This document shows positions 1 to 35,852 of a stretch of 38,923 nt of DNA, in pieces. The stretch comes from a virus (taxonomy: Duplodnaviria; Caudoviricetes). A model generated the notes under the pieces. That model did not search any database, was not told where the DNA came from, and saw nothing but the letters and a program-made list of their open reading frames with translations. A program made the position numbers and the translations under genes. The stretch's first letter is position 1; each line of letters starts with the position of its first letter. The DNA lies in IMG/VR virus record IMGVR_UViG_3300020045_005222, positions 1 through 38,923 of that record. One strand, 5' to 3'.

Positions 1-121
1 GAATGCGTTGGATTTAATTTGTTGCAGAAAGTACCCAAAGGCATTTCCATTTTAGAAGCCAAAACGCCCTTGTTTAGCTTCCATTTTTCTACGATTTCTT
101 GTATCATCGGTTAGTTGTTTA
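1..121. repeat. Terminal direct repeat (121 bp), left copy; probably an assembly overlap of a circular contig
   Basis: Bases 1-121 are identical to 38803-38923. The junction lies inside an IS, and the ORFs read through it. Confidence 0.95.
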
Positions 122-1032
122 TAAGTTAAATGAACATTGATATTATTAAGCATTGCATCAAATCTGAAACTTTCAGTATATTGACGTGTGTTGTATCTGA
201 AAACAAATTCATCTACATATTGTTGTAAATGTTTGTCGCTCATTGAGTGGTAAATTCCAATTGTACCACGTTTCAATAAACTCCAAAAACCCTCTAAAGT
301 ATTAGTATGCGTATCGCCACTAACATATTCGCCTTTATTGTGTTTTACAAATTTATGTTTGAATGATTGTGCCAAACCTTTGTAGCCCCACCATTCGTCA
401 GTATGTAATTTACTGCCAAACTCTAAATTTTTGTAAACGAACTGGCGTAAATTGTAACCTCTTGTATCGGGAACTTTCTTTGCTCTTAATTCGCCACCAC
501 GTTCAACTATTCCTGCAACTGCTGATTTAGTTTTAACGCTACGCCCTTGCGTTCCATCGGTTTGTTTTGCTTTGTGCTTATTGGCTTCTTTTCCACCGAT
601 AAAAGTTTCATCCGCTTCACAAACTCCACTTAATTTTTCATCAGAAGTATGTAACCCGAAAGTAAATCTAACTCTGTGAAGCATAAACCACGCTGTTTTT
701 TGAGTTACACCCAAATCTCTATGCAATTGTAAAGATGAAATTCCTTTTTTATGTGAAGTGATTAAGTAGATAGCGGCAAACCATTTTTGCAATGGTATTT
801 TGCTATCTTCAAAAATAGTTCCAACACGAACCGAAAACTGTTTTCTACATTTCGCACACTTGTAAACTTTTCCGTTTGAAAAACTATACGCTTTATCGTG
901 CTTACAATCTGCATAAGGACAAACTACACCGTTTTCCCAACGTATCATTGCTAAATATTCGTTGCAAGTTTTTTCATCCTTGAAATAAGTAATCAACTGT
1001 AATAAGTTTGTGAATTTCTGTAACGCTACCAT
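52..1032 (-). CDS. IS1595-family (ISXO2-like) DDE transposase
   Basis: N-terminal zinc ribbon (CPYADC...YKCAKC), then motifs EADETFIGG, HTDEWWGY, HTNTLEGFWS.LKR and YVDEFVFRYN. Start placed at ATG 1032 (MVALQKF) rather than 1080. Confidence 0.95.
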   Translation of the reverse strand: MVALQKFTNLLQLITYFKDEKTCNEYLAMIRWENGVVCPYADCKHDKAYSFSNGKVYKCAKCRKQFSVRVGTIFEDSKIPLQKWFAAIYLITSHKKGISSLQLHRDLGVTQKTAWFMLHRVRFTFGLHTSDEKLSGVCEADETFIGGKEANKHKAKQTDGTQGRSVKTKSAVAGIVERGGELRAKKVPDTRGYNLRQFVYKNLEFGSKLHTDEWWGYKGLAQSFKHKFVKHNKGEYVSGDTHTNTLEGFWSLLKRGTIGIYHSMSDKHLQQYVDEFVFRYNTRQYTESFRFDAMLNNINVHLTYKQLTDDTRNRRKMEAKQGRFGF

Positions 1033-1141
1033 ATCTTTTAATTTGATAGTGTAAAGATACAACAAAATAATTAATATCAATTATTTATTTAGATTTATTT
1101 TTGCTTTAATATCAATATTTTAAAGAACTTATGATTTTTTA

Positions 1142-23308: not shown

Positions 23309-23746
23309 ATGAAAAAACTATTATTTCTGGCGGTTCTTATGATTTCCGCTTTGTCGATTGGTCAGGTGACGGGACCGAAATTAACCTATGCATCCGTTGG
23401 TAATTTGCGGAGTACTCCAACACACGCTACAACTGATACAATTACCAATACAACGGTAAAGTATCAGTATGGAATTATCAATGGCAGTAATCGCCACGTT
23501 ACATTCCAATCAACGCTCGATAAGATTTCGGGAACTGTTGCCGGAACGGTAAAGCCTCAAGGAAGTGTAGATGGTGTTCTTTATACGGACATCGCTGGGC
23601 AAACCGCTTTTACTTTGACCGATGTTGCTCAGCAAACGTGTACATTTGTGATTGCTCCTAGTTCGTACCAGTTTTACAGAATTACGGTAACACCATCAGG
23701 AACGCAAAGCACAAAGATTGCTACTAAGGCACTCATTCGGCAGTAA
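23309..23746 (+). CDS. Exported beta-sandwich protein with a Sec signal peptide; moron-like, the only convincing plus-strand gene
   Basis: MKKLLFLAVLMISALSIG|Q signal peptide, own promoter and own terminator. Confidence 0.85.
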   Translation: MKKLLFLAVLMISALSIGQVTGPKLTYASVGNLRSTPTHATTDTITNTTVKYQYGIINGSNRHVTFQSTLDKISGTVAGTVKPQGSVDGVLYTDIAGQTAFTLTDVAQQTCTFVIAPSSYQFYRITVTPSGTQSTKIATKALIRQ

Positions 23747-32860: not shown

Positions 32861-32902
32861 GTAGTAAGTTTTAAAAGAATTTCCGCAAACGTGATTTTAG
32901 AC

Positions 32903-33021
32903 AAAAACAGAAATCCCGCAAAGGAGTGGAAACTCTGCGGGATATTATCATCTGTTTAAGCAATTCGATAAAATCAGATAATCAATATCCGATTCCACTC
33001 GAATTGACTACCGCAAATATA
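32903..33021 (-). promoter_or_regulatory. Promoter TATATTTG plus a leader ending in a terminator-like hairpin whose loop is complementary to the leader 5' end
   Basis: -7 element at 33014-33021; GAGTGGAA at 32993-33000; stem ATCCCGCAGAG/CTTTGCGGGAT (32913-32943) with loop TTTCCACTC. Confidence 0.7.
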
Positions 33022-33055: not shown

Positions 33056-35167
33056 TTAATTTGGCTTATAATATGCTTGAAATCTTACAACCTCGCCATA
33101 TTCAGGAGATTTAATTAAACCATCACCCATTCCCGCTAATGATTCCGCTCCAGCTTCGTCTAATACCACCATTGAATCAACTGCTTTTGGAACTTTAAAG
33201 CAAATCTGAACTGGAAAGTTGTTTTTAATATCCCCGTTTACCACTTTTACAGACGCTCTTTGCGTTGCAATCATTATTCTAAATCCTGATGAACGCCCTT
33301 TTTGAGCTAATATGCCTAAATTTTCCTCTAGCGATTTTTCAACTCCTACTTTTACTCTTTGCATTTTCTCTTGTGGTTCTGCGCCTCCTAAAAGTGCTGC
33401 TGCCGAAAGCCTATAAAAACCTTGTGATTGCATTTCGTAAATATCCAATTCCTTACCTGATTTAGCTTGGTCACAAGCATCCTTAAACTCGTCAAATATT
33501 ACCGCTGTAAATTTCTTTACTCCCGCTTTTATTCTGTCGTTCATTTCAATAACCAATTCACGCATTTTATTTTCAATATCTTCAATCTCCGAAAATATTT
33601 GTACTCCCTCAATTTTTAATCTTGAAAATTCAAACTTTGGATCAAAAACAATAATGTCCGTAACTCCTGATAATTTTAAATATTCGATTGATGAAATCAT
33701 TGAAGCTGTTTTACCACTGCCAACCGAACCGCAAACCAAAACATTAGTAGTGGAGTGGTTTTCAATATCCCAAACAATTAAGTTTCCTAAATTATCTTTA
33801 CCTAAAGGGATTTTTTTATCTACCAATTCTTTAGCGTCGAAAATCAAATCAGTTTCACGTTTTTTGGCGTGTTCTACCGCTAAATAGGCTTTGTCCTCAT
33901 AAACTGATAACTCTTTTGCTACTCTTACGTTTGGAACATTTAACGCACTCGCAATATCCAATGAATGACTATGTATTGATGAAATTTTAATTCCCGGCTC
34001 GAACCTTAGTAAGTATGTGTTACTTGAATAACCGCTAAAGTTATGTTCAACTGCTACTGGTATGTTGAATCGTTTTAAAACGTGTTCTATTTTTTCTGTG
34101 TTTTCCATGTTTTTGTTTGTAAAGTCGTATTGAATGAATGATGATGCTTTTTCTTTAAATTGTTTAAGTAGTTTCGGAGGGATTGATTTTGTTTCCGAAT
34201 CCTTAATTTTCTTTTGGCGTAATTCGATTAAATGCTTTTTGCTTTCATCGATATTGAAAGTCATTTCCGGCATCATTCTTTTAAATAAGAAGTCGTATTG
34301 TTCTGCTCTACTTACAAAATTATCTGATTCATTCATAACGTAGTCGTGGTCAGGATTTGAAACAGCTTCTAGCATTTTTCTAACCGGAGAATATAATAAA
34401 TATTCATAAGTGGCTATTACGTCATTAGTCAACTCAACTTGAAATTTTGCTAGCTGTGGCGATTTATCTCTATTTTCTGGAATCTTATTTTCAACAAACC
34501 AAACCTCGTCCGCATAAATTCCTTTAATACTTCCATAAAGCAAGTAATATAAAACCGATTGCGTACCAAGTGAAAATGCAGCTTCTTCCTCGTCAGAATG
34601 TTTTGATTTACTCTTGTGGTCTAATATTACTATTTTACCTGATTTTGATAAGAAAACTAAATCAACAACACCGCTTGCGGGCAATGGAATTTCAACACCA
34701 TTAAGAACTATAAAATCTTTCATGTATAATTCCACGTCTAAGATTTCTTCAATGTCGTCAATGTAAATCGAAAGTTCTTTAAAAAACCACAACAATAATT
34801 TACTTACATCTTTTGTAGCTGCTTCGATACATTCTAAAACCGACGGTGTAGTTTTTTGTAACTTCCAGTCTTTCGCTTCAACACTTTCGATTTTAGCAAA
34901 TGCGATTTGTTCTAAATCAATTATATCAACATCTACGCCCTCTTTTCGCTTTCTGAAATAGTATTTTAATGCTTCATGGTAAGCGTTTCCGGCAACTGCT
35001 GAGGGAGCTTTTCTGAATGGCTCTCGGTAAATGTATTGCATTTCAAACACAAGCTCATTTCTTGCGAATTGGGACGCTGCTGAATAACTCCAACTGCTGA
35101 TTAGAAAACGGCTGAAAACCTCTTCTAATTCGTCAGGACTTAGTTTTTTAAAGCTATTCTGTATCAT
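33056..35167 (-). CDS. Fusion of a PD-(D/E)XK exonuclease-like domain and an FtsK/SpoIIIE motor (alpha and beta domains; no TM segment, no gamma domain)
   Basis: N-terminal SYS..., GNAYHEAL, GVVDLV, ILDHKS, Q..LY. C-terminal FtsK alpha segment (PGIKISSI....DIA.AL), Walker A GSVGSGKT, DPK, Walker B IFDEF, AQKGRSSG, ATQR, DS..VLDE.GAE.L.G.GD.L. Confidence 0.9.
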   Translation of the reverse strand: MIQNSFKKLSPDELEEVFSRFLISSWSYSAASQFARNELVFEMQYIYREPFRKAPSAVAGNAYHEALKYYFRKRKEGVDVDIIDLEQIAFAKIESVEAKDWKLQKTTPSVLECIEAATKDVSKLLLWFFKELSIYIDDIEEILDVELYMKDFIVLNGVEIPLPASGVVDLVFLSKSGKIVILDHKSKSKHSDEEEAAFSLGTQSVLYYLLYGSIKGIYADEVWFVENKIPENRDKSPQLAKFQVELTNDVIATYEYLLYSPVRKMLEAVSNPDHDYVMNESDNFVSRAEQYDFLFKRMMPEMTFNIDESKKHLIELRQKKIKDSETKSIPPKLLKQFKEKASSFIQYDFTNKNMENTEKIEHVLKRFNIPVAVEHNFSGYSSNTYLLRFEPGIKISSIHSHSLDIASALNVPNVRVAKELSVYEDKAYLAVEHAKKRETDLIFDAKELVDKKIPLGKDNLGNLIVWDIENHSTTNVLVCGSVGSGKTASMISSIEYLKLSGVTDIIVFDPKFEFSRLKIEGVQIFSEIEDIENKMRELVIEMNDRIKAGVKKFTAVIFDEFKDACDQAKSGKELDIYEMQSQGFYRLSAAALLGGAEPQEKMQRVKVGVEKSLEENLGILAQKGRSSGFRIMIATQRASVKVVNGDIKNNFPVQICFKVPKAVDSMVVLDEAGAESLAGMGDGLIKSPEYGEVVRFQAYYKPN

Positions 35168-35799
35168 ACTGTTGATTTTTTAATTGTTCCTACTTTCGCT
35201 TTTCTTTTAGGTTTTTCGGGATCGTATTGATTAAGCGTTTGTGTTATCTGGATTCTTTTCGCTTCAATCTCATTATCGATTATATTTTTAATCGGGTCGT
35301 AGTGTTCCGATGGTAAAAACTCTCCCATCTTTTCAAATTGCAATTTTAAGTTTTGCCATTTTTCAGGTTTTATGTTTCCGATTTTAGGAACGTAAATATT
35401 AAGTTCCGAACCGAACAAAGGAAAGACCCCCATTGCGTCTTTAATAGCGTCTGAAATAGCAACTGAAATAGCGGCTTTTTCTGGGTGCATTGCTGATATT
35501 TCACAAACTGCTCCTCCATCCTGAAAAGTCCATTCTGATTTATCAAAGTCAAAATAATGAACCCGTAAAATAACCTTTACGAATTTCGTTGTAATCAACT
35601 CGGTTAAAATTTCTTTTCTCCATTGAGTTCCCCAAATCCCATTTAACAAAATCAAAACCTTGTCAATTGGTAAATAGTTATATTCTTTGTGAATTTCGTG
35701 TTTTATAACCCAGTCTTTATTTACTGGTGTATTTAAAACTTGGTGTAATTTTCCAAGCTTATTATTGCCCGAATAAATGTTTTGTAAATTAATATCCAT
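35164..35799 (-). CDS. Putative single-strand annealing protein (Rad52/Sak-like)
   Basis: YLPIDKV..LLNGIWG..W and A.SDAIKDA...FG..LN patterns; ATGA-coupled to the nuclease-FtsK gene. Confidence 0.7.
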   Translation of the reverse strand: MDINLQNIYSGNNKLGKLHQVLNTPVNKDWVIKHEIHKEYNYLPIDKVLILLNGIWGTQWRKEILTELITTKFVKVILRVHYFDFDKSEWTFQDGGAVCEISAMHPEKAAISVAISDAIKDAMGVFPLFGSELNIYVPKIGNIKPEKWQNLKLQFEKMGEFLPSEHYDPIKNIIDNEIEAKRIQITQTLNQYDPEKPKRKAKVGTIKKSTV

Positions 35800-35821
35800 A
35801 TCTTTAAAAAGTTTTGTTACA

Positions 35822-35852
35822 CAAATCTACAACTAATTTATTTAATTACAAA
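35822..35852 (-). promoter_or_regulatory. Promoter (TTTG-N19-TAGATTTG) for the recombination operon
   Basis: -7 element at 35822-35829 and TTTG at 35849-35852. Confidence 0.72.

Follow-up and report, generated by a model that had tools for sequence, protein, structure and literature searches.

Two coupled genes on the minus strand

The window, by which we mean the whole stretch of phage DNA analysed here (38,923 nucleotides), carries on its minus strand the gene P0002, followed by P0001, a gene for a fused nuclease and FtsK-type motor (Table 1). The first-pass annotation, made from the sequence alone, had described two open reading frames coupled by an ATGA overlap, and we recovered both where it placed them. 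Of 95 related loci, 64 have partner and fusion overlapping in this same way.

Table 1. Features of the locus in window coordinates
Feature	Position	Strand	Remark
P0002, 211 aa	35164-35799	(-)	predicted Rad52/Sak-superfamily annealase; C-terminal end ...GTIKKSTV
P0001, 703 aa nuclease-FtsK fusion	33056-35167	(-)	
ATGA stop-start overlap, P0002/P0001	35164-35167	(-)	
Bacteroidetes-type promoter consensus match TTG-N19-TAGATTTG	35851-35822	(-)	23 nt upstream of P0002 start
Rad52-like core of P0002, ~residues 12-138	35386-35766	(-)	Atlas structure rows
P0002 C-terminal segment, ~residues 145-193	35221-35367	(-)	likeness to RecT/Sak4 partner ends, by eye
RecB/AdnA/RecE-type PD-(D/E)XK nuclease domain, P0001 ~residues 13-300	34268-35131	(-)	
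FtsK alpha domain, P0001 ~residues 347-435	33863-34129	(-)	
FtsK beta (RecA-fold) motor, P0001 residues 437-703	33059-33859	(-)	
Downstream boundary: TAnnTTTG element, then double hairpin	32895-33021	(-)	

The domain reading of P0001 in the first-pass annotation was borne out. Pfam places a PD-(D/E)XK nuclease at the N terminus (PDDEXK_1 at residues 25-225, E 2e-11) and an FtsK motor with its alpha domain at the C terminus (FtsK_alpha 347-419, FtsK_SpoIIIE 452-563). The motifs claimed for the nuclease (D169, D183-H184-K185 and Q203..Y207) and for the motor (Walker A K486, Walker B D559-E560, R625 and Q636-R637) are all present, and H64 and E146 complete the key residues of the nuclease domain. 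Because that domain holds a single cysteine (position 113), we conclude that it lacks an Fe-S cluster. In the motor, R625 is the arginine finger, and the FtsK pore residues R632, K643 and K657 correspond to R637, K648 and K661 of P0001. The protein also lacks a membrane anchor and a KOPS-reading gamma domain, as had been claimed: no transmembrane helix was found (maximum Kyte-Doolittle 19-mer 1.47), and the chain ends three residues past its last strand, which leaves no gamma domain. Family C termini extend 4 to 26 residues beyond position 697 (97 rows).

We modeled P0001 as a monomer (pTM 0.49, with uncertain domain placement), and the linker at residues 341-351 that joins the nuclease to the alpha domain has low confidence. 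In fold, the N-terminal domain is a nuclease: it matches 3l0a and the AdnA nuclease, both at Z 16.3, and RecE at Z 14.5. The motor matches FtsK with Z 30.8 (rmsd 3.1, 306 residues aligned) and HerA with Z 20.2; against the NCBIfam FtsK model, P0001 scores 100 bits, compared to a cut-off of 1566.

P0002 is predicted to be a Rad52/Sak-superfamily annealase, although the protein itself has no Pfam, PHROG or NCBIfam match. Its Atlas features score 0.93 against a cluster that is 11% Rad52, and it aligns over residues 11-147 with Rad52-named Atlas clusters at TM 0.51 to 0.54. A word-based search found no relative, whereas a full HMMER scan gave 124 matches; Pfam Rad52_Rad22 is matched by 8 of 42 family members (best E 5e-6). 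In a TM7 phage, an annotated exonuclease gene comes directly after the gene for a relative, with a 4-nt overlap. Alignments of the P0002 family profile with the AKxYPR profile (a partner family described below), with the Rad52 protein of locus L085 and with PDB sequences were nonsignificant. The C-terminal segment resembles, by eye and unscored, the C-terminal ends of the partners in loci L084 and L150 (RecT and Sak4), whose fusions are among the nearest to P0001 on the tree.

The dedicated promoter proposed by the first-pass annotation stood only in part. The consensus match upstream of P0002 is present, one of six on the window's minus strand, and its TTG spacing falls within the Bacteroidetes promoter consensus. 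Related loci showed no enrichment upstream of partner genes (3/93 versus 17/413, with ORF starts placed mechanically), and we rejected a conserved dedicated promoter. Downstream of P0001, at 33021-33014, lies a TAnnTTTG element, a form given as the Bacteroidetes promoter consensus in PMC10309648. Beyond it, a strong double hairpin (z -6.1) runs into a U-rich tail and may be a terminator or the leader of the next operon. This hairpin has no Rfam match at gathering score, and a search with one exact pattern recovered it in 0 of 381 loci, so we do not regard it as family-wide.

Family spread and partner genes

Bacteroidota phages and prophages carry the fusion as a large family, with examples in a prophage of Flavobacterium fluvii DSM 19978 (L082) and in Chitinophaga tropicalis (L107). 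The FtsK motor is fused in every one of the best 120 homologues, at 99 to 100% coverage. In our conservation alignment (367 rows, identity down to 35%), D169, D183, K185, K486, E560 and R637 are invariant (367/367), R625 and K648 are kept in 366 rows, and H64 and E146 in 361. Two pore positions vary: the R661 equivalent is M in P0001, K in 164 rows and R in 156, and position K661 of the fusion is S in 52. Among annotated phages, none of 153 records matched the full-length fusion at ≥80% coverage and the nuclease domain alone had no match; none of 610 plasmids matched the full-length fusion. The first-pass annotation knew of no characterised example, and our literature search likewise found no description of a nuclease-FtsK fusion.

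Linkage to annealases, which had been predicted for the homologues, proved extensive. A partner-family gene lies upstream of the fusion in 94 of 96 nonredundant loci, adjacent in 90 and with one gene between in 4, and a fresh set of loci had one in 39 of 43. In two loci, a small, tail-bearing non-annealase ORF lies upstream. Six families alternate as partner: RecT/Red-beta (39 loci), AKxYPR (26), Sak4 (13), GNQFN (9), ERF (6) and Rad52 (1). Four are known annealase families, one is predicted to have a Rad52 fold, and GNQFN is unassigned; in 59 of the 96 loci, the partner belongs to a Pfam-named annealase family or is BLAST-linked to one. On trees of the fusion (FastTree and a quick IQ-TREE), the partner family changes 33 to 34 times, where the minimum possible would be 6. 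These loci are phage early replication modules, and integrases are present in several of them.

The AKxYPR family (phrog_3657) is unannotated. Its context and modeled fold point to an annealase role: the five best structural matches are to RAD52, Mgm101 and Sak at Z 6.3 to 8.0, although the tool rates Z 8.0 as a common level, and Foldseek returned nothing for the model at E ≤ 0.001. The GNQFN profile had no significant match to the RecT profile or to PDB sequences. Considering the 77 AKxYPR loci together, YqaJ is present in 39, the fusion in 37, and both in none; the two alternate beside the same partner family. YqaJ is absent from all 96 fusion loci, and neither a YqaJ search nor one with the nuclease profile of the fusion itself turned up a second exonuclease in these loci or in the window.

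The shared partner tail and a candidate docking patch

Most partners share a C-terminal tail, [LM]P or LL, despite their different families. An [LM][PL] ending is present in 84 of 94 partners compared to 9 of 876 other ORFs. When only ATGA-coupled genes are considered, [LM]P ends 50 of 61 partners and 2 of 104 other ORFs. The tail persists with varied codons and spacings, including in 25 of 33 partners without the ATGA overlap, and for this reason we rejected a nucleotide-level cause. None of 28 distinct YqaJ partners, which are near-copies from approximately 7 lineages, ends in [LM]P, compared to 11 of 14 fusion partners; the ending is also absent from 5 annotated controls and from P0002.

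Three residues of the fusion, K39, W294 and T297, are close to invariant: of 367 rows, 362 keep the first, 361 the second and 357 the third. All three are changed in P0001 (K39L, W294L and T297R) and in its relatives P0003 and P0031, which are putatively paired with tailless partners. No other lineage changed all three, and the three substitutions amount to one event within one clade. We consider these residues a candidate docking site for the partner tail. Because tail and patch are both changed in the P0001 lineage, coupling there was likely rewired or loosened. We tentatively extend this to a plug-in socket, in which a single-chain resectosome would accept any annealase or small protein that bears the tail, docking at K39/W294/T297 would load or activate it, and the lineage in the window would have lost both peptide and socket.

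It is also conceivable, though doubtful, that the tail has a host protein as its target or serves as an activator, rather than tethering the partner to the fusion; the resection role proposed below may hold in either case. LL endings occur beside YqaJ too (6 of 28), two small non-annealase proteins bear the tail, and the fusions of loci L143 and L147 retain all three patch residues beside tailless partners. Against this, [LM]P is missing in 28 of 28 YqaJ partners from the same host group, tails are alike (by eye) where sister fusions have partners that differ in annealase core, and the window's tailless lineage is the one that has lost the patch.

A proposed end-resection machine and its relatives

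The first-pass annotation had suggested a single-chain motor-nuclease that serves an annealase, and two parts of that proposal, the nuclease fold and the annealase linkage, hold up. An intact nuclease and an intact motor in the slot of a phage exonuclease make an ATP-powered counterpart of Exo/annealase pairs likely. We favor, at a probability of roughly 65%, the reading that P0001 is an ATP-driven DNA end-resection machine feeding the co-encoded predicted annealase. The motor domains would form an FtsK-like ring threaded onto a double-stranded end. According to PMC7321959, FtsK moves DNA from its beta ring toward its alpha ring; with nucleases tethered to the alpha domains, the DNA end would thus be pumped out into them, as HerA feeds NurA. 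One strand would be degraded, probably leaving a 3' tail that the annealase would coat and then anneal, and in most relatives the annealase would likely be docked by its [LM]P tail at the K39/W294/T297 patch. Such a reaction could support circularisation, concatemer formation or break repair.

Linkage to annealases is compatible with any recombination step, and we give a small but real chance to a post-annealing role, in which the motor travels along duplex DNA to migrate junctions or strip proteins, while the nuclease, rather than resecting ends, acts on flaps or as an endonuclease. Structural neighbours of the nuclease include the flap or single-strand nucleases MGME1, Dna2 and the Cas4-like ACE1, and lambda Exo is highly processive (18 kb) without any motor, which leaves the benefit of the fusion's motor unexplained. 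However, the fusion replaces the YqaJ exonuclease one for one, the searches for YqaJ and for the fusion's nuclease profile found no second exonuclease alongside it, and by geometry the nuclease sits at the DNA exit face.

It is improbable that the fusion serves mainly to destroy the DNA of the host or of competing phages, or guards ends from host nucleases, with the annealase a mere co-regulated neighbour. Nuclease-linked FtsK/HerA motors are known in defence systems, the motor region has weak PADLOC matches, and the non-annealase ORFs upstream in two loci would fit, but those PADLOC matches span just the motor's C-terminal 90 residues. Annealase adjacency has outlasted over 30 swaps of partner, a common tail being retained, and the loci are early replication modules of phages; nothing emerged in favor of the degradation of host or competitor DNA that the first-pass annotation had offered as an option. 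Variability at the R661 equivalent might suggest an inactive scaffold that oligomerises an ATP-independent exonuclease, but this is very improbable, since almost no row of the alignment departs from Walker A, Walker B, the arginine finger or two of the pore residues. Least probable is that the motor stands in for a missing replicative helicase during recombination-dependent replication, an idea of the first-pass annotation that we found unsupported and rejected. A scan of 26 window proteins recognised no helicase, but among related loci 9 have DnaB and one has a primase-helicase within approximately 6 kb, and FtsK grips both strands of duplex DNA.

The end-resection reading sets the fusion beside several known systems. 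Lambda Exo with Red-beta, RecE with RecT, and YqaJ with RecT likewise have, in the early region, an annealase gene coupled to one for a PD-(D/E)XK nuclease, and RecE is a structural neighbour of the P0001 nuclease. The exonucleases of these two-component recombinases lack an ATPase, whereas the P0001 nuclease is fused to an FtsK motor, and the fusion differs further in its six interchanging partner families, mostly with one common tail. RecBCD, AddAB and AdnAB also combine a motor and a RecB-family nuclease on one chain, and the P0001 nuclease has the domains of AdnA and AddB among its structural neighbours; the motors of these systems are SF1 helicases that serve RecA, whereas P0001 has an FtsK-type motor of the ring dsDNA pump class. 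Cas4 and AddB nucleases carry a four-cysteine Fe-S cluster, and the AddB cysteines are not found in P0001. HerA-NurA is likewise an FtsK/HerA-superfamily dsDNA pump that feeds a nuclease, with resection dependent on translocation (PMC9960219). It consists of two cellular proteins, whereas the fusion is one chain, phage-encoded and annealase-linked. NurA has an RNase H fold; P0001 instead joins a RecB-type PDDEXK_1 nuclease to an FtsK-clade motor with an alpha domain. Compared to FtsK/SpoIIIE, the fusion keeps the alpha and beta domains, the arginine finger and the pore loops (apart from the variable R661 equivalent), lacks the membrane anchor, long linker and gamma domain, and has the nuclease at its N-terminal position.

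If the end-resection reading is true, the locus would hold a motorised version of the phage Exo/annealase pair, and the fusion would do on one chain what HerA-NurA does with two. The fusion abounds in prophages of Bacteroidota from the gut and the environment, where it is annotated just as "DNA translocase FtsK." It would provide a simple system for studying how a dsDNA pump couples to resection that is strand-selective, and how a single partner can serve unrelated annealases. For dsDNA recombineering in Bacteroidota, the fusion together with its annealase would be a candidate native to these hosts.

Domains and conserved residues of the fusion

Both ORFs of the module described in the first-pass annotation, an annealase-like gene (P0002) ATGA-coupled to a 703-aa nuclease-FtsK fusion (P0001), were found in the window with the ATGA overlap. 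Pfam matches (see table) and an AlphaFold2 monomer model of P0001 (pLDDT 84, pTM 0.49, flexible linker at 341-351) bear out the reading of an N-terminal PD-(D/E)XK nuclease joined to a C-terminal FtsK motor. Model residues ~13-301 match the putative exonuclease 3l0a (Z 16.3, rmsd 4.2, 222 aligned), the AdnA nuclease (Z 16.3, rmsd 4.0, 240 aligned) and RecE (Z 14.5, rmsd 3.9, 203 aligned); residues 352-703 match FtsK (Z 30.8, rmsd 3.1, 306 aligned). As the annotation had it, the whole protein contains no membrane helix, and the motor leaves no room after it for a gamma domain.

A word search yielded 2073 clusters at E <=0.001 from 7995 scored candidates; the best 120 of the 2073 are full-length fusions, and a divergent clade exists at ~35% identity. 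Titles name Bacteroidota for 59 of 68 genome loci, the other nine being metagenome bins, and record searches found the full fusion in no cultured phage or plasmid. One related fusion (L014) is apparently frameshift-split, by error or decay.

The motifs are intact. Across 367 aligned rows, possibly including duplicates, D169, D183, K185, K486, E560 and R637 are invariant; R625, K648, H184, Q203 and Q636 are kept in 366, H64 and E146 in 361, and K661 in 307. D replaces H64 in L143, a divergent-clade locus. We take H64, E146, D169, D183, K185 and QxxxY to be RecB-family nuclease motifs. Aligned with P. aeruginosa FtsK, our reference for motor numbering, R625 corresponds to R620, and R637, K648 and K661 to R632, K643 and K657; passages of PMC7321959 give R620 as the arginine finger and the other three, with R661, a role in DNA gripping. 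The R661-equivalent position varies across the family and is M in P0001.

Coordinates of the fusion, its domains and neighboring or related features
Feature	Sequence	Position	Remark
Fusion P0001	window	33056-35167 (-)	703 aa
Predicted annealase P0002	window	35164-35799 (-)	211 aa
Bacteroidetes promoter consensus	window	35851-35822	sequence match only
TAnnTTTG element, then two strong hairpins and U-rich run	window	32895-33021 (-)	z -6.1
Lone plus-strand ORF	window	23309-23746 (+)	between portal and upstream genes; weak major-tail PHROG match (E 3e-4)
IS1595-family transposase	window	52-1080 (-)	contig end
PDDEXK_1 (Pfam)	P0001	residues 25-225	
FtsK_alpha (Pfam)	P0001	residues 347-419	
FtsK_SpoIIIE (Pfam)	P0001	residues 452-563	
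Split fusion	L014	2104-4213	566- and 145-aa ORFs
AKxYPR gene	L030	3692-4528	
GNQFN gene	L161	4291-5001	
Small ORF	L322	502-873	123 aa
Small ORF	L319	974-1219	81 aa
DnaB	L030	9631-12036	internal LAGLIDADG domain (intein-like)
Methylase	L041	11173-13239	carries intein
DNA polymerase III beta clamp	L095	9480-10634	phage gene
DNA polymerase III beta clamp	L098	10077-11222	phage gene

Annealase partners and the exonuclease slot

From 219 related loci, 213 with a long match formed 96 clusters at 90%. The gene directly upstream belonged to a partner family in 90 clusters (RecT/Red-beta 38, AKxYPR 25, Sak4/AAA_24 13, GNQFN 7, ERF 6, Rad52 1), and in four further loci such a gene lay one step more upstream; L141 had none within 1.3 kb upstream, and the L106 sequence is cut. 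A replicate metagenome scan placed partner-family genes upstream in 39 of 43 new clusters, the rest having too little sequence (two) or small unrelated ORFs (two). The linkage to annealases expected of such a module thus holds among homologues, and the pair is real and conserved. Among 39 RecT-group proteins, 21 exceed the Pfam cut-off, 7 match weakly and 11 are linked via BLAST only. On trees of 97 fusions (L014 and L106 left out; labels inferred for P0003 and P0031, the fusions nearest P0001), the partner family changes 33-34 times, versus a minimum of 6 and ~52 when shuffled. Small ORFs in L322 and L319, ending in LP or MP, are ATGA-coupled to the fusion and gave no annealase match.

The AKxYPR family (phrog_3657, PHROG function "unknown") is predicted to have a Rad52-like core: its model's five top matches, at modest Z values, are RAD52 (8.0, 7.7), Mgm101 (6.6) and Sak (6.4, 6.3), with the Red-beta C-terminal domain also matched (5.3-5.4). 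Foldseek returned nothing significant for this model. In other phages, AKxYPR genes adjoin an exonuclease gene, either YqaJ or a RecE-like one. GNQFN, with eight relatives of the L161 gene, had no match in the libraries searched; it fills the annealase slot, bears the partners' C-terminal tail and is possibly a further annealase family. P0002 has 124 relatives; 8 of 42 aligned match Pfam Rad52_Rad22, a relative directly precedes an annotated exonuclease, and Atlas puts P0002 near Rad52 clusters.

The most telling control is exclusion of the exonuclease YqaJ. A search with the AKxYPR alignment turned up 77 new loci (three more, already in the set, uncounted): YqaJ is present in 39 and the fusion in 37, no locus has both, and one has neither. 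Searches found no YqaJ in the window or in any of the 96 fusion loci. Because YqaJ or the fusion stands beside AKxYPR, never both, we conclude that the fusion fills the exonuclease slot. Recombination-dependent replication, with the motor substituting for an unrecognized helicase, fares poorly: among 55 large ORFs scanned, DnaB lies <=~6 kb from the fusion in nine loci and a primase-helicase in one. In L095 and L098, beta clamp genes lie downstream, a few kb from the fusion.

The window, an entire phage contig of 38,923 nt, encodes terminase, portal, protease and major head proteins, and no integrase was recognized among 26 proteins scanned. Of the proposed dedicated promoter, the consensus match stands (element, passages of PMC10309648), but relatives show no enrichment (3/93 upstream of partners vs 17/413). 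The hairpins, upstream of DUF559 nuclease and replication-initiator genes, are possibly an attenuator or leader RNA; Rfam gave nothing at gathering score.

A shared partner tail and a candidate socket

All six partner families have like C-terminal ends that approximate KKxxLK-x(n)-[LM]P or KKxxLK-x(n)-LL and persist across varied codons and spacings. [LM][PL] ends occur in 84/94 partners versus 9/876 other ORFs, and [LM]P in 67/94 versus 5/876 (replicate partners, 33/39 and 27/39). In sets containing many near-copies, [LM]P ends 0/28 distinct YqaJ partners versus 11/14 fusion partners, and LL 6/28 versus 3/14; because LL occurs in both, only [LM]P discriminates. The tail is absent from all five hand-picked annotated-phage annealases, four of them beside annotated exonucleases. 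It is not universal among partners, nor is LL exclusive to fusion partners.

P0002 is an exception, ending KKSTV. Of its four closest relatives, P0123 and P0124 end in LP and P0122 and P0125 do not; the latter match P0031 and P0003, the two nearest P0001 relatives in the tree, in contig size (5576 and 6795). P0001, P0003 and P0031 share K39L, W294L/M and T297R; of the 367 rows, 362, 361 and 357 retain K39, W294 and T297, respectively. The K39 and W294/T297 segments should presumably be neighbors in an AddB/Cas4 architecture, which would make these residues a candidate socket, and the P0001 lineage would have lost socket and tail together; the triple change and tail loss are one evolutionary event. 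L143 and L147, of the divergent clade (35% identity), have RecT partners ending in basic residues rather than LP, yet retain K39, W294 and T297.

Proposed action and relation to known systems

We consider it probable, at roughly two chances in three, that the fusion performs end resection for the annealase. A ring would assemble and thread onto a DNA end; because FtsK pumps DNA from beta towards alpha (passages of PMC7321959) and alpha is the domain to which the nuclease is joined, the end would come out of the ring where the nucleases sit, and the product would be handed over to the annealase. We infer assembly, threading, polarity and hand-over alike. Such a feed parallels NurA-HerA, whose 5' resection depends on translocation (passages of PMC9960219). 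Lambda Exo resects ~18 kb without a motor (passages of PMC7496540); as guesses, the motor's benefit may be speed or pushing through bound proteins.

A literature search of titles and abstract openings, with most subscription papers outside it, yielded no description of the fusion. Text passages of the annealase surveys PMC8093625 and PMC2896510, whose supplements may list such neighbors, do not contain 'FtsK', and passages of PMC8987985 and PMC5512222 bear no relation to it. The fusion is thus apparently undescribed in searchable papers. We regard the pair as a variant of the two-component recombinases of phages; it would work like HerA-NurA, while being a member of neither family.
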